Part shown: positions 1 through 64,000 of the stretch, in pieces
Numbering within the stretch: position 1 is the stretch's first letter
Layout of the letters: each line of letters opens with the position of its first letter
Assembly: GCA_963833425.1 (NCBI GenBank)
Contig: CAWHXP010000003.1
Span: forward strand, 128,001-192,000
Direction: 5' to 3'
DNA: 64,000 bases
From: an uncultured Methanosarcinaceae archaeon
GTDB taxonomy: Archaea; Halobacteriota; Methanosarcinia; Methanosarcinales; Methanosarcinaceae
The notes under the pieces: generated by a model
Told to the model about the DNA's origin: nothing
Database searches by the model: none
What the model saw: only the letters and a program-made list of their open reading frames with translations
Program-made: the position numbers and the translations under genes

Positions 1-1052
1 GTAAAATGAAATCAACCAAATAACAGAGGGCAATATATAAAATTAAAAAATTCTAATCAAAAGTAATCGAGAAGATTTAGCGCAATATTTTTCAGCGAAA
101 TGTTTTTCCATCCAAAAGCCTAAAAAAACTTGATAGATTAATGTGGACAAAAATACTCACTGTTGCTTTTTCACATAAGATATTTGTACCGCTTCTTTAC
201 AGTCAAATATTCAAATTTCTATTTTCCTGTATTCGCCTATTTAATTTTCCTAAATTACCTCTTAGTACTTTTGAAGTTACAAAATAGTAATTATAGCTAT
301 TATTTGGCAGCATAATTGCATTTAGAATTAAACCTCATTTTTTCGTTAAATCATTTGATACCTTCAAAAATTTCATCAAAACCATCTAGGATTTGTTAGT
401 TTTCACCCTACAAAGTAACAAAAAGATTTATTCCAGTCGAATACTTTGCAGCAAGCTGCCGAGATGGAAACTTCTCAGATAACCGGTGTTAAATAATTGA
501 GTTATATTTTAAGCTACATTTTTCATTATAAAAATGAAAGAAGTCATGCAAACAATTGCATCTCTAAAATAATATAAACTCTTTTTTAGGACGCATCGTA
601 CAAAATTTATTTAGAATATGAATTTATCAACTATTTAAAATATGTATGCTTTGGAATTGGTAAAAAAAAATACTATTTTGAGTTTGATACAATCTGTAAT
701 GTTGGCGTGCATATCATCTTTTCATTGGTGACAGGCAAAAAGCATTCTTCTTCAATAGTGATATAGATTATAAAAAGTATCGTAGTAAGTAAAATCTTAA
801 AATAACGCGGTGATAATTAAAACAATTGTGGAATTGTGAACTTGGGGATAAAGAATGTCACATTGGTACTGCAGAAGCTGTAACTTCCGACGTAATTAAA
901 GATTAAGTTAAAATCAAATAATCATGACGAAACAGAATTATATAAGAAAATGAAAATATTGTTGTTAAATAATTTCCTTATAACCGAAGCGATCCTCAAA
1001 TTGTAGTTTAGAGTCTCTTCTCACAGAAAAATAATCATATTAATTATGCTAG

Positions 1053-1141
1053 AAAAGATTTAGATAAAACCCCTTAATTTAGTTTTATGCATATAATTGA
1101 CATTAAATGACTCATAAAAGTCAAACATTTATCTAAACCTC
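1053..1141. mobile_element. Degenerate ~88-bp MITE (IS5-type TIRs)
   Basis: Ends aaaagatttagataaa / tttatctaaacctc resemble the TIR gag(a/g)atttcgataaac of the IS5 copies at 8449 and 49254; same length as other copies. Confidence 0.55.
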
Positions 1142-1558
1142 TATATTATATTAACTGAAAGGAAATATACATCTAGTCTTTCTGTAATAACATAGTTTAC
1201 CCTGGCTCCCACTTTCCGTATATGCACACAAAAAAGCTATCTATTTTTTCAATATAGAGCAGCTTAAGAATCAATCTAACTTTTCATGGATTATTAGTAG
1301 AAAACGGACAAACAAATTATGCATCTGAGAAGAGTAAGCTAATTATATAAAATTTATAGAAACCAAGATGTAGTTAAAAATGTCATCATGAAAGAGATTT
1401 AAAAACTAAATCGTTGGAAAGCTAATAAAAGCTGCACCACCAAATTAGAAAAAACAAAATTACCTATAAATCCCAACCCAAATGCAAATCCCCAATAAAT
1501 TTCGCAAAAAATATTTTATAAAGCAGAGAAATAAACAAAAATTCCCTAGGAATTTGAT

Positions 1559-1603
1559 TCCATAATGGTCGAATTTCCGAAAAGAATTTTCAGCCATTAT
1601 GGA
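1559..1603 (-). terminator. Stem-loop downstream of the regulator gene
   Basis: Inverted repeat tccataatgg (1559-1568) / ccattatgga (1594-1603), about 20 nt past the stop at 1624. Confidence 0.45.
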
Positions 1604-1623
1604 GCTAACTTGTTCAAAAGTCT

Positions 1624-2022
1624 TTACTTTGAGGGAGTTAATGGCACCTTTTTACTCATTACTTTCAGCTTCTTGATTGCTGAGATTGTTGCCTGGGATT
1701 CTTTGTAAATTTTATCCTCATAATAGCTTATAATCTCGTCAACAGGAGCTGCAAGGGCATAAATCTTAATCGGTCTCCCTTTTCCAGGCTTCTTTTCTGA
1801 ACGCACACTTACCCAGGACTGGTTACGCATTAACCTCATTGCGAGACTAACTTCGGGTTGCCTTAATCCAGTACTGATTTCAATTTCACGGGATGAAGCT
1901 TCGTCTACATTCATGAGATATGCCATAGTTGTAGCAACATTTCTTGACATCCCGAGATTTCTCAACGTTTCAATAAAAATGTGGTCGTTTTCGTCCAGCA
2001 CTTTTACTTCATAGTCTTTCAT
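1624..2022 (-). CDS. Winged-HTH transcriptional regulator (TrmB/ArsR-like archaeal family)
   Basis: 132 aa with SREIE..TGLRQPEVS helix-turn-helix and GKGRP wing; GGGGT RBS-like motif upstream. Confidence 0.85.
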   Translation of the reverse strand: MKDYEVKVLDENDHIFIETLRNLGMSRNVATTMAYLMNVDEASSREIEISTGLRQPEVSLAMRLMRNQSWVSVRSEKKPGKGRPIKIYALAAPVDEIISYYEDKIYKESQATISAIKKLKVMSKKVPLTPSK

Positions 2023-3231: not shown

Positions 3232-4860
3232 ATGAAAGCTTCTGATCTTTTCGGCGCCCAACTCAAAGAAGAAGGCACATAATATATTTTTGAACTGCCA
3301 GGAGAAGAAAATCTGGACTTTCTAGAGTCATTGAGAATTTCAGAAATCAAACTAAGAGTAACAAGGCATGAACATGCTGCAGCTTTTATGGCCACAACCT
3401 ACTGAAGACTGACAGTAAAACCAGGGATTTGTTTTTCAATTCTGAGATCAGGAGCTACTAACCTGGTCACTGGCGTTGCCCAGGCACAGCATGTAGGTGC
3501 TCCTTTTATATCTATCTCCGGTTAGAAGGCACTGAATAACAACTGGCAGGGTCGTTTCCAGTTGTAGACGTTGCCAGGATGATGAAGCCACTCTGCAAAA
3601 ATTCCTTTGCAATAACTGATCCAGGAATGATTCCTACAGTAATCCGAAATGCCTTCAAACATGCAGAATCTGAAAGGCCAGGAGCTGTGCATATAGAACT
3701 CCCGGGAGATGTAGCTTAAGAAGAAACTGATGCAGTAGTACAAAAGAGAAGCTAAATAGGATTCTTACCCGAATTTAGAGGCCGTGGAGAAAGGTGCTTC
3801 TATGATCCGTGAAGCTAAAAATCCCTTGATAATGGTTTCTTCAGGAGCTAACAGAAAAGGAGTCGCTGAAGAGCTTGGGAACTTTGCCACAAAAACAGGC
3901 ATCTATCTGGTGCATACCCAGATGGGGAAAAGTGTTGTTCCGATGGCTGCATTTACAGTCTCTTTGCGATCGGAATCCATTCCAGAGATCATATCGACTG
4001 TGGAATCGATGGATCTGATGTGATAATCACCGTGGGGTACAACATTGCTGAATATCCTCCCTGTCTGTGGAATGGAAAACTGGATAAAAAGATCATAAAT
4101 TTAGATTTCGTGGGATATGTGCCTGAAAGATACTTTAACCCTACAGTAAAGATCATCGGAGGTGTCACCTCTTCAATCAGAGAACTTGCTGCAAATATTC
4201 AGGAGAAAAGGGAACTCCCTTTCTTTGAGAAGACCAGATATTTCATTGAGAAAAAAATAAATGCTACCCACCCCAAAATATCCTCCTTTGCCACAATCAG
4301 TAGTACACAGTGTCAGAAAAGTGTTCGGAAAGGAAGATATAATCATATTGAACAATGGAATTTATAAGCTGTGGTTTCCCCGCCTTTACAAGACATACGC
4401 CCTAAACACTGTACTTCTTGACAATGCCCCTGCAGTTATTGGAGGAGGCTCTCTGCAGGAATTACCACAAAACTTCTTCATCCTGAACGCCGAGTGCTTG
4501 CAATCTGCGGGAACCGGGGCTTTATGATAAATTGCCAGTAGCTTGAGACTGCAAAGTGTTATGGAATTCCTGTAGTTGTTCTTATTCTTAATGATAATGC
4601 CTTTGGTTTTATCAAATGGGAGCAGAAAAAGAAGCACTTTGAGGATTTTGGATTGGACTATGGAAATCCTGATTTTGCTCTTTTTGCGGAGACTTTTGGG
4701 GCTGCAGGCTTTAAGGTCAGATAAAGTGATAAACTTGCAGAAATTTTGGATATATCTTTTTCCTTAAATAAGTAGCTGTTATTGAATGCCCTATCGATTA
4801 TTCAGCAAATTATGATACCTTGTCGATAGAACTGAGAAACCTTATATGTGAATTCTTACC
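3232..4860 (+). pseudogene. Acetolactate synthase large subunit-like TPP enzyme, multiple stops and frameshifts
   Basis: Fragments MKASDLF..LKEEG, LPGEENLDFLESL, TRHEHAAAFMA, GATNLVTGVAQA, IITVGY, LDNG-like IILNNGIYKLWF, and ILNDNAFGFIKWEQ spread over several frames. Confidence 0.9.
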
Positions 4861-5441
4861 CTTTCTCCGCAGATATACACAAAAATTCCGTCTATTTTCT
4901 CAAGATGAAGTAGCTTAAAAATTAATCCAACTTTCAATGAATAAATAATGGCCAAATAGATAAACATATTCATAAACATGAATCATATAACTTTTTTATC
5001 CAGTTATTTAGTAATCCTGGGAGCAGAAGCTCTGAGATTTATCCTATTCTCAAGGTAGTAATAATTTTATCTAACCTCTAGGTAGAGACATCTTGTAGAT
5101 CAGATTCAGCTACAGTAGTTGAGATAGCCTTTAGATTCTCGAATACCAGATATATCATCTCAAAAGGGGATTCACATAATTGAGGCTTAAATAACACTGG
5201 TTTTCCGCTTTATAATCTTTGCCGTAAAAATCAACACGTGTAGATGAATAAAATATGTTTATTAATACATACATAAAGTATTTTCACTGATTTCAAACTA
5301 GAGATGAATCACAAAAAGCACGGAAACACAAGAGTAAGTATACCTGTGAACAATTTTTCCAAGTTTCCTGTGGTTATAAAATTTTCAGTGGCTTTAGTTA
5401 AGTAATTAAGTTAGAACTATACTTTATTCTTAAAAATGCAT

Positions 5442-6554
5442 TTAATTCGAATACTTACTAGACCTTTGAGTAATAATTGTGAGTATATCTTCATCCTGCA
5501 TTCTGTGATCGAGTCCTACTCGCTGTCCGGGATGCTTTGCGGAAGTACCCCATATCAGAGCATAACGGAATTTCCTTCGAAAATCTCTATGCAAGCGATC
5601 ACAGATCTTACCTATATTTGTTCCGCTCATAATTATCAGTGGTTCTTCAACATCTGCGAGCTGGCCCTGCGGTTTTAAATAGACTCGAATGAAACCAAGA
5701 CGATCATAAATTGCATCTTTGAGGGTTTCTATGTTGATTCCTTCATGAGCCGATATGAAGATTGAATTCGGGTATATATTTCTACATTCCTCAATCAGTT
5801 GGGGATAGGCCAAATCAACCTTGTTAACAACTATTAGCGCCCTTACATAACTCCTGTTGTTAAGGACGACATCAATAAGCTGGTCAACTGTTATATTTTC
5901 TCTTATAAGTACATTGGCATTATGAATCTTGTACTCATCCAGTACAGCTTTGATAGTTTCCTCATCCAGGTCAAGTTCAATAGTCGAGTTGATCTCGATT
6001 CCCCCTCTATCTTTCTTCTTTATAATCACATCAGGGATCTCTTCGTCAACACGAATTCCTGCCTGGTATAGTTCGTCCATGAGTACTTCATAATGCTTGG
6101 GTTGGAATACATCGAGCAAAAATATAACCATATCTGAATTCCGGATAACAGAAATGACTTCCTTTCCTCGTCCACGTCCAGAAGATGCACCTTTCACAAG
6201 TCCGGGAACGTCCAGGAACTGGATTGTTGCTCCTTTATGCTCGAGAACTCCTGGGACAACTGTAAGGGTGGTAAAGTCGTATGTACCAACTTCTGACTTG
6301 GCATCCGTGAGTTTGTTAAGAAGCGTGGATTTCCCTACTGATGGGAAACCCACAAGGGTCACAGTTCCATCTCCAGATTTTCTGATTGAGTATCCATCCC
6401 CTCCACCCTTTGAAGATGCTTTTTTTTCCACCTCGTCTCGCAAGCGAGCTATTTTAGCTTTCAACCTTCCGATATGATGGGAAGTTGCCTTGTTGTACTG
6501 CGTCTTGCGAATTTCATCTTCTACTTCCTGTATTTGCTCCTGTATACTGCTCAT
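5442..6554 (-). CDS. DRG/OBG-family GTP-binding protein with C-terminal TGS domain
   Basis: GFPSVGKST (G1), YDFTT (G2), DVPG (G3), NKVD (G4), TQYNKAT N-terminus. Confidence 0.95.
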   Translation of the reverse strand: MSSIQEQIQEVEDEIRKTQYNKATSHHIGRLKAKIARLRDEVEKKASSKGGGDGYSIRKSGDGTVTLVGFPSVGKSTLLNKLTDAKSEVGTYDFTTLTVVPGVLEHKGATIQFLDVPGLVKGASSGRGRGKEVISVIRNSDMVIFLLDVFQPKHYEVLMDELYQAGIRVDEEIPDVIIKKKDRGGIEINSTIELDLDEETIKAVLDEYKIHNANVLIRENITVDQLIDVVLNNRSYVRALIVVNKVDLAYPQLIEECRNIYPNSIFISAHEGINIETLKDAIYDRLGFIRVYLKPQGQLADVEEPLIIMSGTNIGKICDRLHRDFRRKFRYALIWGTSAKHPGQRVGLDHRMQDEDILTIITQRSSKYSN

Positions 6555-7253
6555 CTGGAACCTGCCGAGTTATGGACTGAATAAATTATTCTTATTTTAT
6601 CCGAAGAAAGAAAACACATAAATAATAATTTCTAAAAACTTTTTTGATCCAAAAACGATACTTCATCTTATTATTTTATCCTGAATAGTCGAATTCAATA
6701 TATATATCTATGGAATAATTTTATTTAATTATCCGAAAATGATAGGAATATTTTGTTAAATTTATATTTTTTAATAAGTATACTAATATTTAAAACTTAT
6801 TGAGAAAGGGGTCCGGAGAAATATCAGAGATAAAATTCATGTGATAGAACTAGAAAAAAAAAAATCAATAGCATTAAACCTTCAACCATCTAGTACTTTA
6901 TTAGTTAATACCAAGGTATTTTCATAATGAATTTCTGAGCTAGCGTAAGCTAATGCAACTACCAGATAGTCAGGAATTATTATTCCAATGTTATGGATGT
7001 GGTGAAGACTGGATACAAAATTAGGATGAGACATGACTGAGATGCGAATCTAACCGCTCCTTGTATGAGTCAGAATGATCTTAGAGATTCTGAAAAGGAG
7101 AATTTTGAAGCTTCATGAGGAGAAGGGAGGGATTATCGCTTTCTTGGAGAACATACAAGCTGTCAGGAAAGGGATTTTCGATATAATATCCAAGCTCGAA
7201 GGATTGAGTGTACTCAACAGTAGTCTCGGTTTCATAAAATAGAGGAAATAAAG

Positions 7254-8255
7254 GATCTGTAGAAATCCTTAATTTGACGCAAATTATTTCTATAACTTTT
7301 TTGTCTATGTTGTATATTATTAATTTAATTTTAATCTCTTTCACTTGACAACGAAATTTCCTTGCCCTAAGTGTTTCTCCTAATTTACTTTAACTACAGA
7401 AAACATTGTCTCCACGATATTTCTTTGATTATATTTAATTTAGTCAAAGACCAGATTCAACTGTTTTCTATATTTCCCCTTCTTTTCTTTCTTTTTCTCT
7501 CTCTTACAGGTATAATTGAATCTGCTTTGATTTCTTCTCTAATTATATAATGTATTTTTTTCTGAATCGTATCCTTTATCCATTACATAACAATCAGACG
7601 TTCTTATCTTGTTTAATTGCCTTATCAGAGCATTTGCATGTTTGATTTCATGGTCTGTTTCTGTTTTTTGACTAATTTTCCATCCCAATATTATCTTTTT
7701 ACTTGTGTCCACTGACATTGAAGTTCTCAGAAAGCTTCGAAGAAGCTTCCCTGTTCTTCTGGAATAATAATAGATTGCATATGAACTCGTAAATCCTGTT
7801 GCACCAATGCTGCAAAAGAGCCATTTTCTCCATATGAGTATAACAGCTTTAGAATCTTTGACAGAAGAAGGTTAAACAGAGAAGATGAAATCATGGTTAC
7901 AAACTTTTGAAGGGTAGTAAAATGTGGAATCTTATCAAGAGCAAGTTTTTCTTTTATATCGCTCATAAGGTCAATAAGTTCTACAAAATCTCGATAGGCT
8001 GTACTAATATACTTTTTCAATAAAACCAGTGCAAGAAGCGGATGCTGAATATAAATGTGTTTTGAATACCTGCAGGAATAAAACTTCAGTCTGAAGACTG
8101 AACAGTTTCAAGGCTGGTATCAACAAATTGAATGTACTTACTAAATTTCAATATCGAATGTTCCTTCGTTTTTAGCGAAAAAATAAGAAAATATTAGAAC
8201 GGAATAGTTATAATACTATAGTGTAAAAGTTCAATTTAGAGCATTTCTACAGAGC
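7254..8255 (-). mobile_element. IS5/IS4-superfamily DDE element with degraded transposase
   Basis: TIRs tctgtagaaatcct (7256-7269) and agcatttctacaga (8240-8253), 13/14 match; fragments KIPHFTTLQKF, MDKGYDSE, RNIVETMFSVVK in broken frames. Confidence 0.85.
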
Positions 8256-8448
8256 TGAAATAAAAGCTAAGACTAAAAAATATAGGTTATTTCAAAAATT
8301 TTCGGTTCCAAAATTTATCAGGCTATCAATTCCAAGTTATCCCTTTTACCTCGTTAGCTACAATTAATTTATATTAATTTATCATTCCAAAGTTTACTTA
8401 TCCGATTTTAAAATTCACTAATTATACAAGAGTTTTTTATTAACCATA

Positions 8449-9553
8449 GAGAATTTCGATAAACTCCATGCGCTTGAGCATGGTTGACTTTAAATTTGTC
8501 AATATTTATGTATATTCATGAAAACTCTTACTGATTTTGCTCTTAAAAATAGTATAAACTTCTTGAATCTGTTGGAGATAAGCTTGCTGAAATTTATTCC
8601 TGAATTGATTGGAAAACGTTTCGTATTATTCTTGAGTCTATGTATATTAACAAAACCGTTTCAGAAGGGAGATCTGAAACTGATGTCGTTGTGATGTTCA
8701 AAATGCTTGTTTTACAACAATGGCACAGGCTCTCTGATTTTAAACTTGAGAAACAGTGTATAGATCGAATTTCTTTTAGGAAATTCCTTGTATTTCCGGA
8801 ATACATACCTGACAATACTACTGTATGGCTATTTAGGGAGAGAATTATCGAGAATTTCAAAGAAAATATGGGGAAAGTTGCAAAGCCAACTTGATGCTCT
8901 GGGTTTACCGATAAAGCAGGGAATGATTCAGGATGCTACTTTTATCCATTCAGATCCAGGACATGCAAAAGCAGAGAGATGAGGCAAAAACAAGAAGAAG
9001 CAGAGACGGAACATGGACAAAGAAGAGAGGTAAATCTCACTTTGGATATAAGCTTCATAATATAATAGACAGAGATTATGAGCTGATCAGAAGATTCAAA
9101 ACAACAACTGCGTCAGTACATGATTCGTATGTAGATTTGACAGAGCATACTTTGGAGCAAAAACGAAAGGGTATAATGCAACAATGAAAAGAGCGGTCAA
9201 AGGACATACGTTGGGAATAAAGGATATATTAAGAAATAAGAGAATTAGCTCAAAAAGATTCCAAGGGGAAAGAGTTTATTCAGTAACGAAAGAAATTTTC
9301 AAAGCAGGAAGAGTTTTTGTTACTACTGTTAAAAGAGTAAATCTAAAAATGTTGTGTACGGCTTTTTGTTATAATCTCCATCAATTGAGGACATTGAAAA
9401 TAAAAAAACTATATTGAAGATAGCGGAAGCTATCTTTAAAATCAAAGAATTGAGACTAAGTAAAACCAAAAAGAGGACTTAAATAGAGAAATTGAGGGGA
9501 AGATCTTAGAAATTTCTGCTAAGAAATAAAATCCGAAGTTTATCGAAATCCTC
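8449..9553 (+). mobile_element. IS5-family element, defective transposase, copy 1
   Basis: TIRs gagaatttcgataaact / agtttatcgaaatcctc; 4-bp TSD CATA (8445-8448, 9554-9557); motifs MFKMLVLQQWH, DRISFRKFL, IQDATFI, HFGYKLH. Confidence 0.93.
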
Positions 9554-9918
9554 CATAGTTTAACAGTACAATTTCCCTTTACTGCGAGACTCAATCTTTT
9601 TGTCAAAAAGCATTAAAATCTTCCAAAATTTCATTCGGATCATCTAGGATGTGTCAGTTTTCAAGCATATTGTATTAAAATATTTTAGATGTATGCCGTT
9701 AATTCCATTTTAGAATTTTCACTATCTAATTTTGTAAACATAATTTAATATTTTTATCCATTATCCTATAATCTATCAAATTCAACATAAAGAATCAGAT
9801 CAAAGTGTAGGTGTAAAACCTCACTGCAAGCAATTGGGAGGTTTAAGCCATCGCTTTGTATCCAATTGGAATTACCCAAAATCAAATCTCCTCATTTTGA
9901 CATATAATTAGTACTATA

Positions 9919-10007
9919 GAATATTTCGATAAACCTCTTATTTTCATGAGTTATTTATATACCTATTATAAGCGTAAGACAAAATTTAAGGTTTTATCGA
10001 AATCCTC
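9919..10007. mobile_element. 89-bp MITE with IS5-type TIRs
   Basis: gaatatttcgataaacc ... ggttttatcgaaatcctc, flanked by TATA on both sides. Confidence 0.85.
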
Positions 10008-10251
10008 TATAGTCTCTTTGAAGGACAGCAATGGTCACAGTTAGATAAGGACAGCCACATTTCGAGAAAAAAGTATTAAATAATTGTCAGAATAGACATT
10101 TGAAAAATATTTCACTGTGAAATCGCGAAAAGTAAATCTGGTAAAAAGCCTATAATAACAGATATTTACCAAAAAAAAATATTAGTTGGAAGAGTCCCAC
10201 AAAATTTTATTTTGGCCTATTTTCCTCTTTCAATCTTCTGTGCCAGGCCTT

Positions 10252-11130
10252 TTATTTTTTGATGAGTTTACCTGTACTTTGAGTTATTTTTCCAAAAGCT
10301 TCAATGATCCTTTTTGTTATTGGCCCGATTTTGCCTGTGCCAATTGATCTTCCATCAAGTTTGGTCAAGGGAGCAGCTTCAGCTGCTGTGCCAGTAACAA
10401 ATATTTCATCTGCTGTGTAGAGATCAAATAGGCCCAGATTTGCTTCGATGGTTTTGTACCCTATTTCTTCTAGAAGTTCTATAGCTGTTGCTCTGGTGAT
10501 CCCTTTTAAGTTGCTTATTGTGAAGGGGGTGAACACTTTGTTGTTTTTGATAATAAAAATATTGTCTCCTGAGCCTTCGCACACAAAACCATTCTGGTCC
10601 AGGAAGATTGCTTCATCCCCTCCTTTCTCGTTTGCTTCTATCTTTGCCAGAATATTGTTCAGATAGTTCAGAGATTTGATATTCGGGGATAAGGCATCAG
10701 GAGCATTTCGTCGGATACAAACGCTGACTCCTGTGAGCCCGGTCTCATAAAGATCACCATACATAGCTCTCCAAGCCTGAGCTATAATGATCACGTTTGG
10801 CTTTCCACAATTACGGGGATCAAGCCCAAGATCTCCGATTCCCCTAGAGACTATTGGACGGATGTAAGCGTCTTTTAGATTGTTTTTCCTTAGGGTCTCA
10901 AGGATAATCTCAGTCATCTCATCCTTTGTGAGAGGGATATCCATTGCAATTGCCTTTGCTGAGTCATAAAGCCTGTCAACATGCTCCTTTAACTTAAAGA
11001 CACGCCCATTGTATGCCTTTATACCTTCAAACACACCATCACCATAGAGGAAACCATGGTCATAAACCGAAACCTTAGCTTCGGATTTGGGAACAAATTT
11101 CCCATCCAAGTAAATCAGCAATTCAGTCAT
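10252..11130 (-). CDS. ilvE: Branched-chain amino acid aminotransferase (PLP class IV)
   Basis: [23 protein letters not shown] (PLP lysine), [23 protein letters not shown]. Confidence 0.95.
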
Positions 11131-11434: not shown

Positions 11435-11555
11435 TGTCATCTATTTCCTCAATATGACAACGGATTGAAAATTAATCTGACTCTCAATGATTAAAAGGAA
11501 GTAAATCGGAAAACAAAATATACATATGTATAAATATAGGAAACGTCGGATGAAA
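11435..11555 (+). repeat. Dispersed repeat, copy 1 (second copy at ~53995-54120)
   Basis: Shared core ctcaatatgacaa...aaaattaatctgact.tcaatga. Confidence 0.75.
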
Positions 11556-11568
11556 ACACATAAAATCA

Positions 11569-11717
11569 GGTTCCGTTGCAAAAAATCTGGCTATTTTACA
11601 AAACCAATGAAAAACATCACGAATAGGATATCTAGATGTTATGAACAAGTAAAAAATGATACAAAAAGCAACCATTATAGCCTAAAAAGGCAGTAAAATT
11701 ATTTTTGCAACGGAACC
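11569..11717. mobile_element. 149-bp MITE with IS6-type TIRs
   Basis: Perfect 16-bp inverted repeat ggttccgttgcaaaaa / tttttgcaacggaacc; resembles ends of the IS6 at 59885-60749. Confidence 0.85.
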
Positions 11718-50519: not shown

Positions 50520-50630
50520 CCTACAATTGCTGTGACATCTTGCAGGGTCACAGAAAGGATTACATAATTATTATTTTACTAGATAAACATTAATTAATTT
50601 TAAGTAGTGACAAATAATATAGTTGTTTTG
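50520..50630 (+). repeat. Dispersed repeat, copy 2 (see 29470-29580)
   Basis: ttgctgtgacatcttgcaggg...tattattttac...tatagttgt. Confidence 0.75.
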
Positions 50631-52850: not shown

Positions 52851-53833
52851 TTATACCAGATAGCGGCCACTTGGCTCTGGTACTTTTGCTGGCAACAACT
52901 ATAGACATCGTTTTTGGAGAACCTCCGGCTGCTGTGCACCCGGTTGTATGGATGGGAAAATTAATTAATTTTCTTAAAAATATAGCTCCAAAAATCCACA
53001 GAAAATTTTATGGAATTATAATGGCTCTCTGTTGTGTTTTTTTCGCAGCTTCACTTGGTTATTTGGTTCTATACATTGCAGCTCTCCCTGGAATTCCAAG
53101 TATTATTGCACTCTTTATAGAAGCTTATTTCTTGAAGGCTACATTTGCCATCAAAAGTCTCCTTAGTCCGGCAAGGGAGATTTACAAGCACCTTGAAGAA
53201 AACAGGCTTGAAAAAGTCCGGGAACTACTCCCTATATACGTAAGCCGGAACACTTCCAAACTGACCAAGACCCAGATGTCTTCTGCAGTTATCGAATCCG
53301 TATCCGAGAATTACGTAGACTGCATCTTGAGCCCCATTTTATATTATGTTCTTTTCGGAGAATTCGGACTTGTCGCTGCATATGCATTCAAAGCTATAAG
53401 TACCCTAGATTCCATGGTTGGATATACTACCAAACAGTATAAGGAACTTGGGTACTTCTCGGCAAAATCAGATGATGCATTGAATTGGATTCCGGCTCGA
53501 ATATCTGTTATATTTATTCTTGCAGCAGCTCTTATAGTAGCTATAATCCCGAAAAAGCAAGGAAAGATAAACCCCTTTAATAGTATCAGGAGTGTCCTGG
53601 AAGATGGCATGAAAACCCCGTCTCCTAATTCCGGTTACCCTATGGCTGCGACTGCAGGAGCTCTCGGAGTCAAACTCGAAAAACCTGATCATTACATTTT
53701 GGGAGCATTATACCCTCCCACTGAAATAAAGGATATAAAAAGAGTATCCCAATTAATAGCAATTGCTTCAGGATTCTCACTTGCTGCCTTTATGGCAGTA
53801 ATTCAGATAGCAGAGATTCATTCATGCCTATAA
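52847..53833 (+). CDS. cbiB: Adenosylcobinamide-phosphate synthase
   Basis: GEPPAAVHPVVWMG, ESVSEN, TLDSMVGY, NWIPAR, SPNSGYPMAA. Confidence 0.93.
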   Translation: MIIPDSGHLALVLLLATTIDIVFGEPPAAVHPVVWMGKLINFLKNIAPKIHRKFYGIIMALCCVFFAASLGYLVLYIAALPGIPSIIALFIEAYFLKATFAIKSLLSPAREIYKHLEENRLEKVRELLPIYVSRNTSKLTKTQMSSAVIESVSENYVDCILSPILYYVLFGEFGLVAAYAFKAISTLDSMVGYTTKQYKELGYFSAKSDDALNWIPARISVIFILAAALIVAIIPKKQGKINPFNSIRSVLEDGMKTPSPNSGYPMAATAGALGVKLEKPDHYILGALYPPTEIKDIKRVSQLIAIASGFSLAAFMAVIQIAEIHSCL

Positions 53834-53994
53834 TTCCTTCTTTATTTTGTCAGAGCCGAGTGTTGTCACGATATGGATTTTGTGCCGAAATAAAATTTTG
53901 AGAAAAGCGGAGCAAGCCGAAGAACGCTAATCTACCAGAAGCATTAAAATCCATCCATAAACAATAAATTCACTACTATAGATGTATACAAAAG

Positions 53995-54120
53995 TGCCAT
54001 CCATTTTCTCAATATGACAATTAGCTTCAAAATTAATCTGACTTTCAATGAATATATGGTAGGCAAATAGGCAAACAAATTCTACATCTGTGTATAATAT
54101 GCAGAATGTAGGATAAATCA
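53995..54120 (+). repeat. Dispersed repeat, copy 2 (see 11435-11555), inside the cob cluster
   Basis: ctcaatatgacaa...aaaattaatctgactttcaatga. Confidence 0.75.
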
Positions 54121-54200
54121 GAATGAAGTTAAACTCGATTTATAGAATCAATAACTTACTAAAGTTTACCTAGGCAGGATAAAAATCACAATGTGATCTT

Positions 54201-54764
54201 ATGAAGTTATCAGATATTGATGAAAGGAACCTGAAAAAAGAGAAGTCTGAAAAAGTAGAGGGTAGAGCTATAATTGATATACTCGATGTCCTTTCTGAAG
54301 AGGGTATCAGTATCCAGGATCTTGTAGATACTGCTCTCGAAATGTATATCCCACATCCTGGGCTTGAAACAAGGGAAAAAGCTGAATATTTATTTAAAAG
54401 AGAACTCAAATATGCTCTTTCGGACCCAAATCTATGTATTTTGATTTATTCAGGGATTCTGCTTGAGAGGGAAGGCAGGATAGGAAATCTTCCGAATATT
54501 AGTAAAAATTCCTATGAAAAAGACATGAGTTTCATAATTGCAGACGAAGTTCTTGGAACAAGTATTGCAACCTACATCAGTGGCTCCAAAGGAGCATTCG
54601 AGTTTGTAAGGTACGACAAACAAAAGCCAGGAATTCTTTCAAACCTGGGACCATTTATTGATGATGTGATAGGGGGTCTTATAGGGGGGGTATCCTCCAG
54701 TATGTATTCAAGAGGTCTGGCAGAATTCGGAAAGAAAAATTGGGAATCAGGCGAAGCCCTATGA
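54201..54764 (+). CDS. cobZ: Alpha-ribazole-phosphate phosphatase, archaeal type
   Basis: [38 protein letters not shown]; cob cluster context. Confidence 0.85.
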
Positions 54765-55561
54765 ATTCATTTTTACTTGCTTTTAAATCAAGTTTGGGGT
54801 TCCTGTCCACTATTCCTGTGGGAATCAGTATGGAGGGGATTAATGAGCTTATGGGGAAAATATATTTATACCCCATTGCAGGAGCAGTGCTTGGTTTTCT
54901 CATAGGAACAGTAGCATACGTAGGGCAGATAATTATTCCGGGAGCTATTCTTGCAGCCCTTATCATGGGATTCATATATTATATAACGGGTTTTAATCAT
55001 CTTGACGGAGTCACTGATATAGGTGACGGTTTTATGGCTCACGGGTCACTTGAAAAAAAAATAAAGGCTTTGAAGGACACGAACCTCGGAACTGGGGGAG
55101 TTTCCTTCTGCATTCTGCTGTTACTTACTTTGTACGGTTCGATAAGAGCAATCCAAGAAGAAGGTTCAGTTGTCGGATATAAACTCCCAACGTTGATGTT
55201 CGCATCAATGTTTATCGCAGAGGTTAGTGCAAAGCAATCCATGCTTACAATCGCTGCTTTTGGAAAGCCTATACCTCTCCAGGGAAACAAGGCTTATCCG
55301 AGCCTTGGAACAATGACTATAAACGGAGCAACCAAACAAAATTTCCTTATAGGACTTGTGTTCGGAGCTATTTTGTGTTCTCTGCCTTTTGGGTGGATAG
55401 GTCTATTCCCCTATCTGGGGGCATGTGTCTCTGCTCTGGCAATTCTTAACAGGAGCTATGCCCATTTTGGCGGTTTAAACGGAGACGGGATAGGTGTTGC
55501 TAACGAAATAGGTAGGGTGACTGCCCTGAGTATTATCGCAGTTATCCTGAAATTTCATTAA
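54761..55561 (+). CDS. cobS: Adenosylcobinamide-GDP ribazoletransferase (cobalamin synthase)
   Basis: [43 protein letters not shown] 54761 overlaps the cobZ stop. Confidence 0.93.
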
Positions 55562-55583
55562 ATAGATACATGAGAGATTTGGA

Positions 55584-56195
55584 ATGGATGCTATTGTAAT
55601 GGCAGGAGGATTGGGACAACGGCTTGGAATGGGGGAAAAACCGTGTGTTGAATTACTTGGAAAACCACTCATAAGCTATGTGATAGATACCCTCATAACC
55701 ACAAAGAATATAGATCGTGTCTTTGTAGCAGTATCTCCTGCAACCCCTAAGACCGAAATTATGATTCAGGAATATTATAAAGGAGAAATTCAAGTAATCA
55801 GGACCTTTGGAGGGAACTACGTAGGGGATATGATTTATGCAGTAGAAATTTCGCAAACAACTGGTTCAGTAATGATTATTATGTCAGATCTTCCCCTGAT
55901 AGATTCAGAGCTTATAGATTCGATAATTGAGAAATACTGGGAAGCAGAAAAACCGGCACTTTCAGTATATGTCCCAATAAATATCTGCAAGGGAGCTGGA
56001 ATCAGGCCTGGAACGGTTTTCAACAAGGACGGCAAACTAATTGTACCTACCGGGATTAATATTCTGGACAGTTCTCAAATCAGAAACGAACAGGAAGACT
56101 TTAATCTTATACTTGAGGATCCCAAATTAGCAACAAACGTGAATACTGTACAAGACCTCCAACGCTGCAGGAATTTACTGCAGTGCAAAAACTAA
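55584..56195 (+). CDS. cobY: GTP:adenosylcobinamide-phosphate guanylyltransferase
   Basis: MAGGLGQRLGMGEKP, SDLP, PTGINI, NVNT..DL. Confidence 0.88.
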   Translation: MDAIVMAGGLGQRLGMGEKPCVELLGKPLISYVIDTLITTKNIDRVFVAVSPATPKTEIMIQEYYKGEIQVIRTFGGNYVGDMIYAVEISQTTGSVMIIMSDLPLIDSELIDSIIEKYWEAEKPALSVYVPINICKGAGIRPGTVFNKDGKLIVPTGINILDSSQIRNEQEDFNLILEDPKLATNVNTVQDLQRCRNLLQCKN

Positions 56196-56499: not shown

Positions 56500-57706
56500 C
56501 TAAGAGGGAAAGATGTAAGCTATATTCATTGGAACATAATTCCACAACCTCCATGTGCCATCGCCTTGCCAGTCGAGGACTCGTCCATCGTGCATAGGGA
56601 CTAGGGTATGCCCAGCTACAATAGACTCCCACTTCCCCTTTCGGGGACACTTATATGGCGGTGGACCACTTGGACTGACCGACATGATCTTAAGTAGATT
56701 TCGATAGGTATTCAACACCTGACTAGTCTGAGTATAATCTGGGTCATAAACAACGGATACACCTAACGACCTGGTAAAGACCGAAGCATTGGTCGGAATC
56801 GGTACTGCTGTAGGGTCTCCCTACGCTCCTTTCCAGGCTATTTCAGTCACAGGAACGTTGAAAATCGAGGGATCGATTACCAGGATACCTGATCCGGGCA
56901 CCTGCACAGTCGGCGCCACATGCCACCCCCAAGAAACTATACAGTTTGGGTTGTTAATGGTTGGGGTATTCAGGTCACCGTAGATCCATACCTTATCAGG
57001 CTCGACACCCGCTGCAATCATCAGCCTGCACATCTCATGAGCTCGTACCCAGCATCCATCGTCAGGGTACATAAAAGGAATACATGGCGCTGCCGCGCTG
57101 GCAGGACTGCAGGTCTTGGTGCTGACTAAGTCAAAAAGCTCTTGAACCTTTTGTGGTGATATCGAGACTAATTTTGAGGCTTCACTCACCGGCTTGGCGC
57201 ATCACCTCAGCCAGTGCCATAGGATTTGGGTTGGGCTTGATATCTATGATATCATGAGTGTTTAGTGCCTCTGTAACCAGTACATCCTTATCTTCATCCT
57301 TTGCTTTTTTCAAGGCATCCGATAACTTCTGGAAATCCGGGTTTGACCGCTTTATATAGTGCTTGGCATGAGAGACTATCAGCTCTACTTCGAAATCAGC
57401 ATTTTCTAAAGGTGTGACGATCCCTACTTTCACGGACAGCGGAACTAACACTTCTGTTATAACATTAGTTTGAGGATCGATCTCCACATAGACGGCCTGG
57501 TTTGAATGGCTTATGTTGTCAAGTACCTCCTTCCATACGAACGATCTGTGATCTTTCAACTCTAGGTTACCGGATCCTCCACCCTTAAAATTCACCTCAA
57601 TAACCTCAACTGACGGCTTTCCTGGCAATGCGGCTGCGGCTTCATTCGGTGAAGAAATGCCCCTCACCCCGTCCACAACCACATTTGGCTTTGCCATCTT
57701 TTCCAT
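56500..57706 (-). pseudogene. Protein-glutaminase (protein-glutamine deamidase) domain protein, split
   Basis: CIPFMYPDDGCWVRAHEMC, WGWHVAP, VIDPS catalytic Cys/His/Asp motifs; frame break at 57182-57189, in-frame TAG at 56821-56823. Confidence 0.75.
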
Positions 57707-58954: not shown

Positions 58955-59884
58955 TAAATATTTTTCAAACTAAAATAACGAATGAGCTCCTTGCAGAAAA
59001 TGTCAGTCTTGCTTTATCGATAGATTAAACTAGGATCTATTTTCAAAAATGATTGGAGTCGTATTAATTGGGGTGACTGTTTTCTATTAAAGTGAAAACC
59101 TATCAACGGAATTACGTCTCCAATCGAGCTGTTCTGAATCGGCCCACCTATAAGAAATGAAACTTGTTCTTTCTCGTTCAATTCAACCCAAATTTAAAAG
59201 GAACATACATTTTAGAATGTATGAATAGCTTCATGCTTCTGTTTTGGGATCCTATTGTGGAAATAAGTCAACATTTATACTAATTTATAATTAAATATCT
59301 GTTGGGTTAGAATATGTTAATATGGTATGTTTTTACCAATATATATAGAATGAAACTATTAGATATATTTATGATTAAAATTTCATAATTTTAAAATATT
59401 AATCTAAAAGTCCAAATTTATGAAAAAAGTAAGAGAGAACTAATTCTAAAGTGTTTATATAGGAGTGGGAAATTGATGGTCGAATATCGTTCTTTTGATA
59501 TGAAGCAAAACTCAAGTGGTAGAGACATAATACTTGAAGAATTCAATAAGTTGTTTGAGGATTTCATAGAAAAAGTAATAATGCTCAGGATTTGGAGATT
59601 TTGAAATCCCTGGAACTGGAAAAATTACTTTCAACAATATAGTTATTGCAGAAAGTGGTGCCTACACCTGGAAGCCACACGGACGGTATACATATAACTA
59701 ACTTGATTAGATAGTTGTAACCGTCTTTCGACTAAAGGGACCAGGAAAAGAAGAATTTATAGAAAAGGTCCTTGACTTTGCTTGTAATATTCAATATGGA
59801 AATTTAAGGCTCCAAACTCTTGACTACTTGTTCCGATTCTGGAGGGACAAAAAAAGTAGAATTTATAGAAAAGGCTATTTATTC

Positions 59885-60749
59885 GGTTATGTTGCATAAA
59901 ATCATAATATTGAAGCAAAAATTTAGTTTCACAGCAAAGAACATAAAAAAGCAGAATATTTCTCAGATAACATCTAGATTTAGGCAGCTATTCCGAATAA
60001 CTTATTTAAAAAATTGACTTCAGCGAGAACAAATCGATTTAAAGTGTCAACCTATTTTTTTCTTATCATATGCATGATTTCAATTCCTTTTAAAGTCTTA
60101 CTGGCCGTATAAAAAGAGTGAAAGCTTAACATTGGACGAACTATTCGTTTTATAGATCCATGATTCTGTTCAACAATGTTATTCAAATACTTGATTTGTC
60201 GAAGGCTTACATTTTTAGGTAATATTTTTTCAGCTTTAAGTTCATATATAGCAGGTGGATAGGCTGAATTTTTCTCAACAATCATTACCTTTGGAATTTG
60301 ATTATGATTGTAACTCAAAGCTTTCTTAAATAAACGTTTTGCAGCAATTCTATCACGTTTTTCATTTAGCATAAAATCAACTGTATTTCCAGTTGAATCA
60401 ACTGCAAGATACAGATATTTCCATTCACCTTTTACCTTGATGTAGGTTTAGTCCAGTCTCCAAGAGTCATTGGTCGGTTTTAAATATTTATGTATCTTTT
60501 TTTCAATCTCAGGAGAATACTGATGTACCCATCTCATTAGAGTAGTGTGATCAATTTTTTTCCTCTTTCTGCCGTCATTTCCTTTAAATTTCTATAACTA
60601 ACTGGATATTTTAGATACCACCTTACGTATAAATAGGATAATTTCTCCTTCATAATGTTTCCACTTAAAGGCATTAGATAGCATACTATCATTATCTTGA
60701 TTTTCTCTTTATTTATTGTACATTTATGATGAATTTTTGCAACATAACC
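59885..60749 (-). mobile_element. IS6-family element with inactivated transposase
   Basis: TIRs ggttatgttgcataaa / tttttgcaacataacc; ATG 60684 MLSNAFKWKHYEGEII, KYLNNIVEQNHGSIK, GIEIMHMIRK; internal stop and frameshifts. Confidence 0.92.
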
Positions 60750-61091
60750 CTTTTTTGCATTTACTGTGCATCAATCGACCAAATACTCTCCATTCCTTTA
60801 AATGTTGGAGCGTCCAAGTTTTCAAACAGTAGGAAGAATAAATAGAAATTTTCAAAAGTATTAGAACTCATGTACTTGAGGTATAGAATCAAGGCTAAAG
60901 GGACTAAATGAGATAGTATGCCAGCTTAATGACTGGCTTCAAAAAAGACTGTAATCATGCAATTTTCATCTATTTTACTCACAAAATTGATGTGTTTCCC
61001 CCTTCAAAATCGAGGTTATTGTGATCTTCTTTTGCTTTTGACCATTCAATAAATCATATTTATTTGTGAGAAGTTAATTCGTTGAATTAAT

Positions 61092-62201
61092 TTAAATTTT
61101 AACTAAATTATAATCCCGGCTTCCAAGCCCGATTTTTTCTCCATACTTAAGTTGGTGAGTTCCATCTACCATAGGCCAAATGCCCCTGAATTTATCTGCC
61201 CCTTTTTCAAGGTTCGAATGTAGAGAGGAATTGGCAAGCCCTTTCTGCTTGTTCACAAGATCGTAGCTTGCCTGATCAAGGGCAACTGGGTCTTTCGAGG
61301 CAAGGATCCCTACATCTGGAACAATAGAGGCATCACTCCAGGGCACACAATCACAGTCAGGAGTAATCCTAAGAAGGAAGTTGATATAACCTACTCTACC
61401 CTTTTTTCCTTTTACAGCACCATATGCATATTCTGTAAGGCATTCAAGGAATTTCGAGATATCGTGTTCCCAGTCTATGTCGATGGCATTTACAGGGCAT
61501 GCTTCCATGCACTGTCCACAGCTGATACAGATATTAGGTTCGATCCTCGAAACATCCTCTAAAAGTGACGCAGCTCCGACAGGACACACCTCGACGCATT
61601 TTCCACAAGCTATACATTTTTCTTCAACAATATGTGGACTTGTACTTAGGTGCTGGTCCTTCTTGCCAGCCGTAGGGGCACAGCCCATTGCCAGATTCTT
61701 AATAGCTCCTCCAAAGCCGGCTACAATGTGACCTTTAAAGTGTGACACTACAATCATGGAATCTGCTGCAACAATGTCTGCACCTATCTTTACTGACTTA
61801 AAATTTTTTTGTCCGATCTCAATTTCTAATATATTTTGGCTCTTCAAACCATCCGAGATAATAAGCGGAGCCCTGACAACGGAATAATCAAAACCATGTT
61901 CTATTGCTGTTGTCAGGTGATCAACTGCGTTATGTCGGCTTCCGGAGTACAAGGTATTCGTATCTGTGATAAATGGCTTTGATCCGGCTGCCCTAATCAT
62001 TTCTACGATCTGCCTGACAAAAACAGGATTAATGTATCCATCATTTCCATACTCTCCAAAATGGATTTTGATCGCAGTTAGGTCATCTACGCCCAGAAGC
62101 TCGACAAAACCTGCCTTCTCAAAGAGCTTCTGAATTTTGCTTACCGTATTTTCCTGAGGATTTTTTGCCCTAAAATCTGTGAAATAGACATTACTTGTCG
62201 T
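61092..62201 (-). CDS. DUF362-domain iron-sulfur protein with 2x[4Fe-4S] ferredoxin insert; apparent ACG start
   Basis: Frame open from ACG 62201 (TSNVYFTDFRA, AIKIHFGEYGN), SHFKGH, two CxxCxxCxxxCP motifs, PDCDC. Confidence 0.85.
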   Translation of the reverse strand, partial: TTSNVYFTDFRAKNPQENTVSKIQKLFEKAGFVELLGVDDLTAIKIHFGEYGNDGYINPVFVRQIVEMIRAAGSKPFITDTNTLYSGSRHNAVDHLTTAIEHGFDYSVVRAPLIISDGLKSQNILEIEIGQKNFKSVKIGADIVAADSMIVVSHFKGHIVAGFGGAIKNLAMGCAPTAGKKDQHLSTSPHIVEEKCIACGKCVEVCPVGAASLLEDVSRIEPNICISCGQCMEACPVNAIDIDWEHDISKFLECLTEYAYGAVKGKKGRVGYINFLLRITPDCDCVPWSDASIVPDVGILASKDPVALDQASYDLVNKQKGLANSSLHSNLEKGADKFRGIWPMVDGTHQLKYGEKIGLGSRDYNLVKI

Positions 62202-63105
62202 TTGAGTCCCTCCTTGCGAGATCTAATTGAGTTAATGCATTATCCATAATAACAACATAGTTGAGAAAGTATTTTTTATTTTTTGTATTGCGCTACGGAC
62301 GGTAATTCTCAGAGAAAGACTGATTTATCAAGCTAGATAGTTATTCCAAAAGTGATATAGAGTATTGTTAATGTGCCCTACAGTTTTAAATTGACCTATT
62401 AAGCTGATCAAAAAGTTAATATAGTTATTAATATAAAATTTTTCTATAAACTAAATGTGCTTGATATATCATTCAGTTTGCTTCGATTCACAAATTTATT
62501 TTATCGATCTATAGGGGTATACAACTATATATAAAAATATATTAACTCTTATTATTAAAGCCATATTTAAATAATTATCTTGAAAATCGTTATGAAATAA
62601 ATACTTTATTTTGAGCAAAACATCTGTTTCCTATTCAATTCAGGATTAAGTATAGCTAGATATGAAGGTAATGATTCATAATTCTGGAAGAACAATGTAA
62701 CCTACGTTTGATAGATTCTGTGAATTGATATAGGATTTTATTACCACAGACGCATTTACCGTACAATGTTTTAGAAAAAATGAAAAAAATAAGAAAAACT
62801 TATTCACGATATCACTTTGAATCGTAAGAAGAAAATAGAAGCTGAACTTATCTATACATTAAGCTGTATATGCTTATTTCAAGATTATGGATAAATGAAT
62901 TTTCAGTTTGGAAAGATCTTTACTTAGCAATGCTTAGTGAATTTCACTTTTCTTGCTTATAGATGTCTTGGAAATACACTTTCTAAATAATAGTATAAGA
63001 ATTATTATTTTCAATTTACAATTTATGATTTGTAATTTAGATGAAACAAATCTAAATTGCGTTATATGATTATCGTTAACATTATAAATATACGGAGTCA
63101 CTAAT

Positions 63106-64000
63106 ATGCGAATCGGAGTTTATATTTGCCATTGCGGACTGAATGTTGCGGGAGTTATAGACGTTGTGGCATTGCAGGAAATGGTAACTAAACTGGAAGA
63201 TGTGGTGCTTGCTCGAGAAATTCAATTTTTATGTTCCGATTCTGGACAAGAAGGTATCGTCAAAGATATAAAGGAAAACAAAATAGATCGGGTGGTGATA
63301 GCTGCCTGTTCCCCTAGACTCCACGAAAATACCTTCAGGCATGTAATGGAAAAGGCAGATTTAAATCCTTATCTTATGGAAATGGTGAACATAAGAGAAC
63401 AGTGTTCCTGGGTGCACGCTGGAGATCCACAGATGGCAACTCAGAAAGCTTTTGATCTAATTAGAATGGGAGTTGCAAAGGCCAGGTTCCTGAAGGAATT
63501 GAGCGCTACAAGCTCTAAAGTCAGCAGAAATGTCCTTATTATAGGTGGAGGTGTCGCCGGAATTGAGGCTGCTCTGAACCTTGCAGAAGCTGGCTTCCTC
63601 GTAACAATGGTGGAAAGGGAGTCTACAATTGGGGGTAAAATGGCCCTTATGAATGAAGTATTCCCCACAAACGATTGTTCAATCTGCGTACTTGCTCCAA
63701 AAATGACTGAAGTTCAGAATCATCCGAACATCACTCTTTATACATATTCCGAAGTAACTGACATTTCAGGGTCTGTTGGGAAATTTCACGTAAAAATTAA
63801 ACGCAAACCTAGGTTCGTGCTCGAAAAAAAATGTAAAGGTTGTGTGGATCTCTGTTCAGTTGTCTGTCCTGTGGAAATCGAGAACCCTATGGACTATGGG
63901 GTAGGAAAGACCAAAGCAATATATATGCCAATTCCTCAAGCCGTTCCTCAGGTAGTGCTTATCGACCCTGATCACTGCGTAGGCTGTGGACTCTGTTCGC
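63106..64000 (+). CDS. hdrA: CoB-CoM heterodisulfide reductase subunit A (runs off the window end)
   Basis: MRIGVYICHCGLNVAG, AACSPRLHE, NIREQCSWVH, IIGGGVAG, FPTNDCSICVLAP. Confidence 0.95.
   Translation, partial: MRIGVYICHCGLNVAGVIDVVALQEMVTKLEDVVLAREIQFLCSDSGQEGIVKDIKENKIDRVVIAACSPRLHENTFRHVMEKADLNPYLMEMVNIREQCSWVHAGDPQMATQKAFDLIRMGVAKARFLKELSATSSKVSRNVLIIGGGVAGIEAALNLAEAGFLVTMVERESTIGGKMALMNEVFPTNDCSICVLAPKMTEVQNHPNITLYTYSEVTDISGSVGKFHVKIKRKPRFVLEKKCKGCVDLCSVVCPVEIENPMDYGVGKTKAIYMPIPQAVPQVVLIDPDHCVGCGLCS

Follow-up and report, generated by a model that had tools for sequence, protein, structure and literature searches.

What fills a stretch of methanogen chromosome in which intact-looking genes take up only about a third of the sequence, and how did it come to be so? 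This question is raised by a 64-kb piece of DNA (the whole analysed stretch, hereafter the window; contig C3:128,001-192,000) from an uncultured Methanosarcinaceae archaeon, whose assembly, here called G000, comprises 4,070,660 bases in 21 large contigs with a guanine-plus-cytosine (GC) content of about 36%, a marker-based completeness of 80%, and a contamination of 1.35%. A preliminary description of the window had read it as early genome reduction in a bottlenecked or host-restricted microbe. After our analysis, we consider it instead, with a probability of roughly three in four, to be representative of a Methanosarcina lineage, comprising at least four to five species, whose genomes have long consisted of about half non-functional DNA. 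The placement as a Methanosarcina-like chromosome was confirmed, as all 18 drawn Methanosarcina relatives belong to the same genus as G000 and its mcrA is whole, over its cut-off, and without stops. The nearest named matches of the homoaconitase (HacA) are likewise Methanosarcina, with 83-85% amino-acid identity; a HacA-based search of genome contigs led to relatives with little synteny outside hacA itself, and among the matches listed in a HacA search of metagenome contigs none was closer than 84%. A DNA search in 40 relatives of the genus revealed four genomes (G031, G044, G046, and G048) that carry the repeat families of the window and are syntenic with it, yielding 376-561 first-look candidates compared to 39-198 in the other 36 relatives. 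These four are referred to as sister species, and three closed genomes (G013, G042, and G004) as ordinary relatives. Genome sizes in the clade range from 3.5 to 4.1 Mb, and the best sister genomes, G031 and G046, have a marker-based completeness of 92%.

As a proxy for coding density we used the open reading frame (ORF) coverage, i.e., the fraction of sequence inside ORFs of at least 100 amino acids (aa), with relatives sampled in pieces of 20 kb. The window revealed a coverage of 0.388, and its intact-looking genes, summed by hand, amounted to about 22 kb of 64 kb (34%), close to the 20 kb (32%) estimated before. For the whole of G000 the value was 0.502, with 191 overlapping 64-kb windows spanning 0.329-0.632, among which the study window had the eighth lowest coverage; thus, the genome-wide comparison of coding density proposed in the preliminary description supported its view that the erosion concerns the entire genome, and the window is no outlier. 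The sister species displayed the same low values (G046, 0.507 in 10 pieces; G031, 0.506 in 9 pieces; G044, 0.451 in 1 piece; GC content 0.36 in each), compared to 0.712 for G013 (40 pieces), 0.693 for G042 (10 pieces), and 0.664 for G004 (10 pieces). With three closed relatives at only 0.66-0.71 by the same measure, the earlier statement that free-living Methanosarcina genomes are mostly coding was too strong. Base composition accounts for only about 3 points of coverage, since shuffled sequence gave 0.011 for the composition of G000 and 0.043 for that of G013. The median gap between ORFs was 669 bases in G000 versus 285 in G013, and gaps of at least 1 kb held 74% and 27% of all gap bases, respectively. 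Within ORFs of G000 the GC content was 0.405, outside of them 0.311.

Much of the remaining sequence is repetitive. In the window, 25,598 bases match other places in G000, and in 14 random 64-kb windows of the genome, 42.9% of the sequence and 52% of the non-ORF space matched elsewhere in the genome, with a fraction of 0.236 being neither ORF nor recognisable repeat. Equal samples of 800 kb contained 27.7% repeated sequence in G000 versus 9.0% in G013, and 6.0% versus 0.7% when at least 10 copies were required. The repeat families of the window have 41-206 genome matches, whose copies are 70-95% alike, and a search of G000 revealed an identical second copy over at least 90% of the length for none of 14 families. 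Because the copies have diverged to this extent, the expansion is not recent. The decay is also evident in the insertion sequence (IS) genes: DDE_Tnp_1 matches numbered 54 in G000 versus 19, 4, 13, and 1 in four relatives, 28 of the 54 contained internal stops, and stop-free frames of at least 288 aa were found in only 4. About eight IS remnants had been described for the window, and eight were found, belonging to IS5/IS4, IS66, and IS6 types and either split over several frames or recognised by DNA likeness only:

7084-8107, minus strand: IS5-family transposase remnant in three frames (NCBIfam transpos_IS5_2 in all three)
8360-9574, plus strand: IS remnant with DUF772 and DDE_Tnp_1 in three frames (Pfam; frames 8604-8891, 8927-9184, and 9124-9414)
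22152-23486: DNA copy of the DUF772/DDE_Tnp_1 family (DNA similarity)
30154-31341: DNA copy of the same family (DNA similarity)
41130-41572: DNA copy of the same family (DNA similarity)
46240-46558: IS66 piece (Pfam)
49132-50626, minus strand: DUF772/DDE_Tnp_1 IS remnant (Pfam)
59266-60770, minus strand: IS6/IS240 transposase remnant (Pfam DDE_Tnp_IS240, E 1.4e-38; NCBIfam IS6)

The IS5 remnant at 7084-8107 has 66 genome matches, 25 of them near full length at about 90%, and the remnant at 8360-9574 has more than 100. Several DDE_Tnp_1 matches of G000 lie in stop-free frames of exactly 172 aa. Besides these, five short non-coding multi-copy elements of 131-256 bases, each with 41-86 genome matches, were identified in the window. 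The many miniature inverted-repeat transposable elements (MITEs) reported before thus exist as short multi-copy elements, and terminal inverted repeats (TIRs) were seen in two of six repeat pieces compared (the five short elements and the IS66 piece), namely 9900-10031 and 11551-11752:

4850-4980: short multi-copy element, 65 genome matches; same family as 53953-54118 (79.6% alike); no TIR seen
9900-10031: MITE-like element, 86 genome matches; TIRs of about 21 bases (ends 14-34 and 94-114, 90%)
11551-11752: MITE-like element, 41 genome matches; 16-base perfect inverted repeats; within 11478-12643, which is private to G000
17137-17392: short multi-copy element, 77 genome matches; one end in common with 9900-10031; 79% alike to element F
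53953-54118: short multi-copy element between cbiB and cobZ, 86 genome matches

Family scans of the window (Pfam and NCBIfam on natural frames of at least 60 codons, plus DNA searches in relatives), which left many gaps unexplained, further revealed six loci with remnants of other genes, so that the more than a dozen pseudogenes counted earlier are reached only if the eight transposase remnants are included:

3245-4764, plus strand: acetolactate-synthase-like thiamine-pyrophosphate enzyme, old pseudogene in three frames (Pfam TPP_enzyme_M and TPP_enzyme_C pieces; NCBIfam acetolactate synthase piece)
23672-23866: DUF202 piece, gene remnant
24420-25855, minus strand: DUF1254/DUF1214 gene with one frameshift near 24626
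28842-29087: HATPase_c piece, gene remnant
43212-44065: trypsin and WD40 pieces (Pfam)
44326-45662: SIR2_2 and nSTAND1 pieces (Pfam)

The presence of SIR2/STAND/WD40 and HATPase_c sequences among these remnants fits the losses in defence and signalling proposed before. One sign of age is the acetolactate-synthase-like pseudogene, which has 9 stops in one frame of 3760-4764 and shares the stops at 3369, 3459, and 3537 among G000, G031, G046, and G044, so that the gene was dead before the split of these four species. G044 later deleted the counterpart of window 3757-5323 within it (G044 C66:148,116), the only deletion of the pseudogene seen. Members of the DUF1254/DUF1214 family were broken independently and differently in G000, G031, and G046, with one whole copy in G044, and the frameshift near 24626 could be either a lesion of the old kind or a consensus error.

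To extend this beyond the window, 602 non-overlapping ORFs of at least 100 aa from 800 kb of G013 were searched in G000. A match of at least 45% identity was obtained for 257, of which 203 were intact, 25 broken, 20 partial, and 9 unclear; 96 had a weak match only and 249 no match. Regarding mass pseudogenisation, 45 of the 257 detectable homologs (c. 18%) are thus broken or partial, part of which is probably assembly error. At 70% identity or more, the numbers were 152 intact, 11 broken, 3 partial, and 2 unclear. The broken homologs include transposases, an asparagine synthase, a malic enzyme, a CobW-like gene, AhaA, AckA, NadE, UvrA, TatC, and Trm56, and ArgG, NikR, GFPS, and GalU were rejected as broken genes, their apparent stops lying upstream of the true start. 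In the CobW-like GTPase gene (C3:68,235-71,283), about 3 kb lie between two matching parts; the gene has further stops and frameshifts and was probably interrupted by an insertion. At C12:45,400-49,300, four neighbouring G031 ORFs (104-511 aa, 70-96% alike) are all broken by stops or frameshifts in G000; the region gave a weak ATPase alpha-like match and may thus represent an F-type ATPase operon in decay.

Comparison with the sister species revealed how the non-coding DNA evolves. In the alignment of G000 and G031 over 36,381 window bases, the identity was 0.952, 0.967, and 0.852 at codon positions 1, 2, and 3, respectively, and 0.847 in non-coding sequence. Gap columns numbered 599 in non-coding sequence versus 13 in genes (21 genes, 19.4 kb). 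Since its identity is about that of third codon positions and indels are abundant, the non-coding half evolves like neutral sequence. The IS remnant at 30415-31341 is in place in G031, inside an unbroken 9.5-kb alignment (window 30415-39922, G031:C1:30212-39766, 88%), and this shared position indicates an old insertion. As judged from such sequence comparisons, the erosion is old and clade-wide and predates the species split at a synonymous divergence (dS) of about 0.25.

On this shared backbone, G000 carries private additions of about 23 kb in the window (7253-8256, 8450-9552, 11478-12643, 20490-30414, 41569-50654, and 59885-60750). Three of them correspond to the IS5 remnant, the remnant at 8360-9574, and the IS6 copy, where syntenic sister DNA skips 7253-8256, 8450-9552, and 59885-60750, respectively. 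The larger segments, together with a shared non-coding stretch, are as follows:

20490-30414: mosaic of about 10 kb, not syntenic with the sisters, with repeats, an IS copy, a DUF202 piece, the frameshifted DUF1254/DUF1214 gene, and a HATPase_c piece
26807-28004, plus strand: DUF4325 gene and an ORF of no assigned family, inside this mosaic
38450-40241: 1.8 kb without ORF or family match, 81-87% identity in the sisters
41569-50654: island of 9.1 kb with SIR2/STAND/WD40/trypsin pieces, the IS66 piece, and a DUF772/DDE IS remnant; absent from G031, G044, G046, and G048

The flanks of the mosaic lie on two contigs in G031. For the island, query positions 3116 and 12206 are adjacent in G048, and the same jump was found in the other sisters; in the relative G036, the SIR2/STAND pieces match where two whole ORFs, of 860 and 452 aa, are found. 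The gene set of the island (SIR2, STAND NTPase, WD40, trypsin-like) is typical of anti-phage NLR-like systems.

The intact-looking genes between these remnants are open and match their families from end to end, including the core genes (secD, secF, rfcS, cobD-cbiB-cobZ-cobS-cobY, hdrA2, and ilvE), for which an absence of frameshifts had been noted before. The ratio of non-synonymous to synonymous divergence (dN/dS) was 0.149 for the 21 window genes compared with G031 and 0.145 for the 17 compared with G046, with dS at about 0.25-0.27. This measurement, also proposed in the preliminary description, agreed with its view that the core genes are retained and showed them to be under purifying selection. 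Pooled by hand, SecD, SecF, and the replication factor C gene gave about 0.15-0.17 versus 0.11-0.14 in ordinary Methanosarcina pairs at dS 0.39-0.6, which suggests that selection on the genes is at most slightly relaxed. SecD was open in all 31 genomes searched. The following intact genes were identified:

1624-2022, minus strand: MreA-family transcriptional regulator (NCBIfam NF053756, E 2.3e-45); dN/dS 0.013 against G031
5442-6554, minus strand: Obg/DRG-type GTPase (Pfam MMR_HSR1, MMR_HSR1_Xtn, and TGS); dN/dS 0.073
10252-11130, minus strand: branched-chain aminotransferase ilvE (Pfam Aminotran_4, E 5.9e-60)
12758-13333, minus strand: archaeal signal peptidase I (TIGR02228, E 3.3e-16)
14281-16704, minus strand: cytochrome-b5-like gene and DUF255 thioredoxin-domain gene of 711 aa (Pfam Cyt-b5 and Thioredox_DsbH)
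18561-19916, minus strand: coenzyme F390 synthetase (TIGR03335, E 7e-238)
31743-35477, minus strand: rfcS, secD, and secF (Pfam)
35728-38105, plus strand: dCMP deaminase and homoaconitase large subunit hacA (Pfam; NCBIfam hacA family)
40242-40790, plus strand: pyruvoyl-dependent arginine decarboxylase (Pfam PvlArgDC, E 5e-61)
51360-56195, plus strand: cobD-cbiB-cobZ-cobS-cobY for late cobamide synthesis (Pfam, NCBIfam), 90-92% alike to the sisters
61092-62000, minus strand: DUF362 Fe-S protein (Pfam)
63106-63999, plus strand: start of hdrA2, cut by the window end (NF040770 HdrA2, E 1e-158)

Altogether, the following course of events would account for the window. As the data show, several IS families (IS5/IS4-type, IS6, and IS66) and short non-autonomous elements multiplied to tens or more than 100 copies, most of which decayed in place, and inactivated genes stayed in the genome, one pseudogene having the same stops in four species. 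The junk changes about as quickly as third positions of codons and accumulates indels freely, with the genes remaining under ordinary purifying selection. Beyond this, slow deletion of useless DNA, or weak selection against it, would let junk accumulate in place of genome shrinkage, the genome-wide value of 36% GC would stem from the AT-rich junk with its 31%, and each species would add its own IS copies and accessory islands onto the shared backbone.

As independent data, contigs of four public metagenome runs, one from each of four studies and three with a peat label, were compared over window 24301-44300. Contigs 90-99% alike covered 28 of 30 bins, including the non-coding ones, and were colinear over the non-coding stretches 26286-29303 and 37463-40215; they also covered 26286-30207. 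All listed indels were outside of genes, and a contig over 33425-35803 (secD/secF) showed 41 substitutions and 0 gaps. The bins of 41643-44300 were nearly uncovered, and none of the contig pieces listed reaches across the frameshift near 24626. In 3 of the 4 runs, 91 bases at 38753-38845 are skipped and replaced by TTAGC, a natural indel in a non-coding stretch. The runs found are labelled peat, soil, and wetland, with small shares (0.05-0.13), and the labels of the four compared runs, which hold near relatives, gave no sign of a host. In a more far-reaching version of our reading, offered tentatively at somewhat less than even odds, a free-living lineage of several Methanosarcina species from peat-type habitats has stably retained some half of its c. 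4 Mb as neutral junk across speciations, with dead mobile elements and pseudogenes being lost only rarely.

Among the alternatives, the reading of the preliminary description survives best, though we regard it as unlikely. It holds that a bottlenecked or host-restricted (symbiotic) methanogen, after a recent drop in effective population size, is in an early phase of reductive evolution with shrinkage still to come. Host-restricted bacteria such as Mycobacterium leprae, Sodalis glossinidius, and Serratia symbiotica have about half non-coding genomes with many pseudogenes, IS expansion, a shift towards AT, and a retained core, and G000 resembles them in each of these respects, including the c. 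18% of detectable homologs that are broken or partial. A dN/dS of 0.15 on the upper side of the controls and a completeness of only 92% in the best sister genomes would also be compatible with this. Unlike in these bacteria, whose decay is recent and confined to single lineages, the state of G000 is old and common to several species, the carrier is an archaeon, and there is no clear rise in dN/dS. Three sisters are alike in coverage (0.45-0.51) and GC content (0.36) and share the lesions, which would place the trait before a split at dS of about 0.25, the repeat copies are 70-95% alike with none identical, the genomes of 3.5-4.1 Mb (4.07 Mb for G000) are not reduced, and one pseudogene persists in four species with a single deletion seen. 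Moreover, four metagenome studies contain relatives at 90-99% likeness and gave no sign of a host. According to a review (PMC7289037), the coding density of known archaeal symbionts is high and their pseudogenes are few. An origin linked to a host or a bottleneck in the distant past of the clade is nevertheless conceivable.

A long-standing accumulation of junk in a free-living lineage would find a parallel in Trichodesmium, a free-living cyanobacterium that reportedly has abundant non-coding DNA, being about 60% coding, with much of the non-coding part expressed. Both are apparently free-living, repeat-rich, and stably low in coding density across related strains; they differ in domain and habitat, in an ORF coverage of 0.50 for G000, lower than the c. 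60% coding sequence of Trichodesmium, and in the non-coding DNA of G000 evolving at the synonymous rate. Within the genus, the chromosome of M. barkeri is said to have a gene-poor, transposase-rich half. The clade shares with ordinary Methanosarcina the genus, a large genome, a coding density low for a prokaryote, and the presence of IS, and is unlike them in an ORF coverage lower by 16-21 points, a repeat content 3 to 8 times higher in equal samples, a GC content of about 36% versus 39-42% in the sampled relatives, and mostly broken transposase frames. A published description of the clade, or of a Methanosarcina with about 50% coding density, was not found in a search that left most subscription journals and supplements outside.

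Somewhat less probable again is that the extra DNA is functional, consisting of long regulatory regions, non-coding RNAs, or small proteins under selection, and thus extends the large intergenic regions typical of Methanosarcina. The ORF coverage of only 0.66-0.71 in ordinary Methanosarcina would prepare for such an extension, and non-coding sequence such as 38450-40241 can be aligned between species at 81-87%. However, the non-coding identity of 0.847 equals that of third positions (0.852), and indels are about 46 times commoner in non-coding sequence than in genes of similar total length (599 versus 13 gap columns). In addition, recognisable repeats make up half of the non-ORF space, and large parts are present or absent between sisters.

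A further alternative, that low density and broken genes stem from indel errors of a noisy assembly, has to be considered in view of the completeness of 80% and of frameshifts private to G000 in essential-looking genes. The gene for ATP synthase subunit A (AhaA, C9:155,919-157,666) contains three 1-base indels within 200 bases; the rest is 97% identical to a whole 583-aa metagenome protein (P0002), and the gene is whole in three sisters. Its operon is cut by a contig end in G000, where no part of the assembly was found to contain subunit I. The frameshifts of G000 lie at C9:157,150-157,400 in AhaA, C2:57.9 kb in AckA, C11:74.2-74.6 kb in NadE, C3:416.7-417.2 kb in UvrA, and C4:61.5 kb in TatC. 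AhaA, AckA, NadE, UvrA, and TatC, all broken in G000, are whole in G031 (5 of 5), 4 of the 5 are clean in G046 (the match of TatC is interrupted by one TAG, and its open frame is 264 aa long), and 4 of the 5 are whole in G044. Among orthologs at least 90% alike, 6 of 79 were frameshifted in G000 compared to 0 of 91 G000 ORFs in the sisters, an asymmetry that fits the lower completeness of G000 (80% versus 92% in G031 and G046); at 70-90% identity, the reciprocal test gave 20 of 86 versus 41 of 165 broken, blurred by multi-copy families, so that only the class of at least 90% is informative. Because they are absent from the sisters, the private frameshifts are probably errors in the consensus of the G000 assembly. 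The low ORF coverage is not explained by them, since the sisters, which have whole AhaA, AckA, and NadE, are equally low, and one frameshift per 10-13 kb of coding sequence would split ORFs and hardly lower coverage by ORFs of at least 100 aa. The remnants are set apart from intact relatives by numerous substitutions and by TAA, TGA, and TAG stops alike (in a set that included some false positives), repeat copies differ by 5-30%, which indel errors cannot produce, and only 13 gap columns against G031 occur in 21 genes (19.4 kb). The agreement of the sisters and the colinear contigs of four studies, whose short reads reproduce the non-coding stretches, argue that the low coding density is no assembly artefact, and we regard this explanation as very improbable. 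If lesions were to disappear after read polishing, as had been envisaged before, this would probably concern only the private frameshifts.

A different genetic code, in which one stop is read as an amino acid, e.g., TAG as pyrrolysine widely and not just in the few genes in which Methanosarcina decode it so, deserves hardly any weight, as stops in broken homologs were TAA 31, TGA 29, and TAG 20 times (again in a set with some false positives) and making a single stop sense left G000 low against G013 (TAG, 0.542 versus 0.777; TGA, 0.572 versus 0.834; TAA, 0.710 versus 0.900).

Several points weigh against an old, neutral, clade-wide accumulation of junk. Density was derived from ORFs of at least 100 aa without a gene caller, in samples of 180-800 kb for each relative (1 piece for G044), and the non-coding half could contain small genes or RNAs. 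The 249 of 602 G013 ORFs without match in G000 lack the expectation from ordinary species pairs as a control. The 172-aa transposase frames may represent the second ORF of a still functional two-ORF IS, in which case not all copies would be dead. The frameshift errors, being deduced from comparison, could be real and recent lesions. The dN/dS lies slightly above the controls, which comprise three genes only and with the clade at lower dS, and some relaxation of selection is conceivable. Finally, the habitat rests on run labels, which carry no information on a possible association with protists.

The compactness of prokaryotic genomes is generally ascribed to fast deletion of useless DNA, and nearly all exceptions are recent host-restricted bacteria. 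If the more far-reaching version of our reading is true, the clade would be the least gene-dense free-living archaeal group known, in which deletion bias or selection for compactness largely fails without a host. It would provide a rare natural system in which to measure how fast DNA is deleted, what junk DNA costs its carrier, and how IS families of Archaea pass through their life cycle. Symbiosis should then be deduced only with caution from a combination of IS expansion and pseudogenes. For practical purposes, such genomes are underrated by marker-based completeness, gene callers will split or invent genes, and polishing is needed before housekeeping genes are claimed as lost from assemblies of this kind.

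Apart from the genes with assigned functions, the window contains some small ORFs:

56503-57706, minus strand: three small ORFs, one of them protein-glutamine glutaminase-like; not aligned in G031

Another small ORF (38207-38449, a frame of 84 aa), without family match in Pfam and NCBIfam, directly follows hacA and has matching ORFs, 84-132 aa long, in the corresponding position of two further Methanosarcina (74-81% identity).

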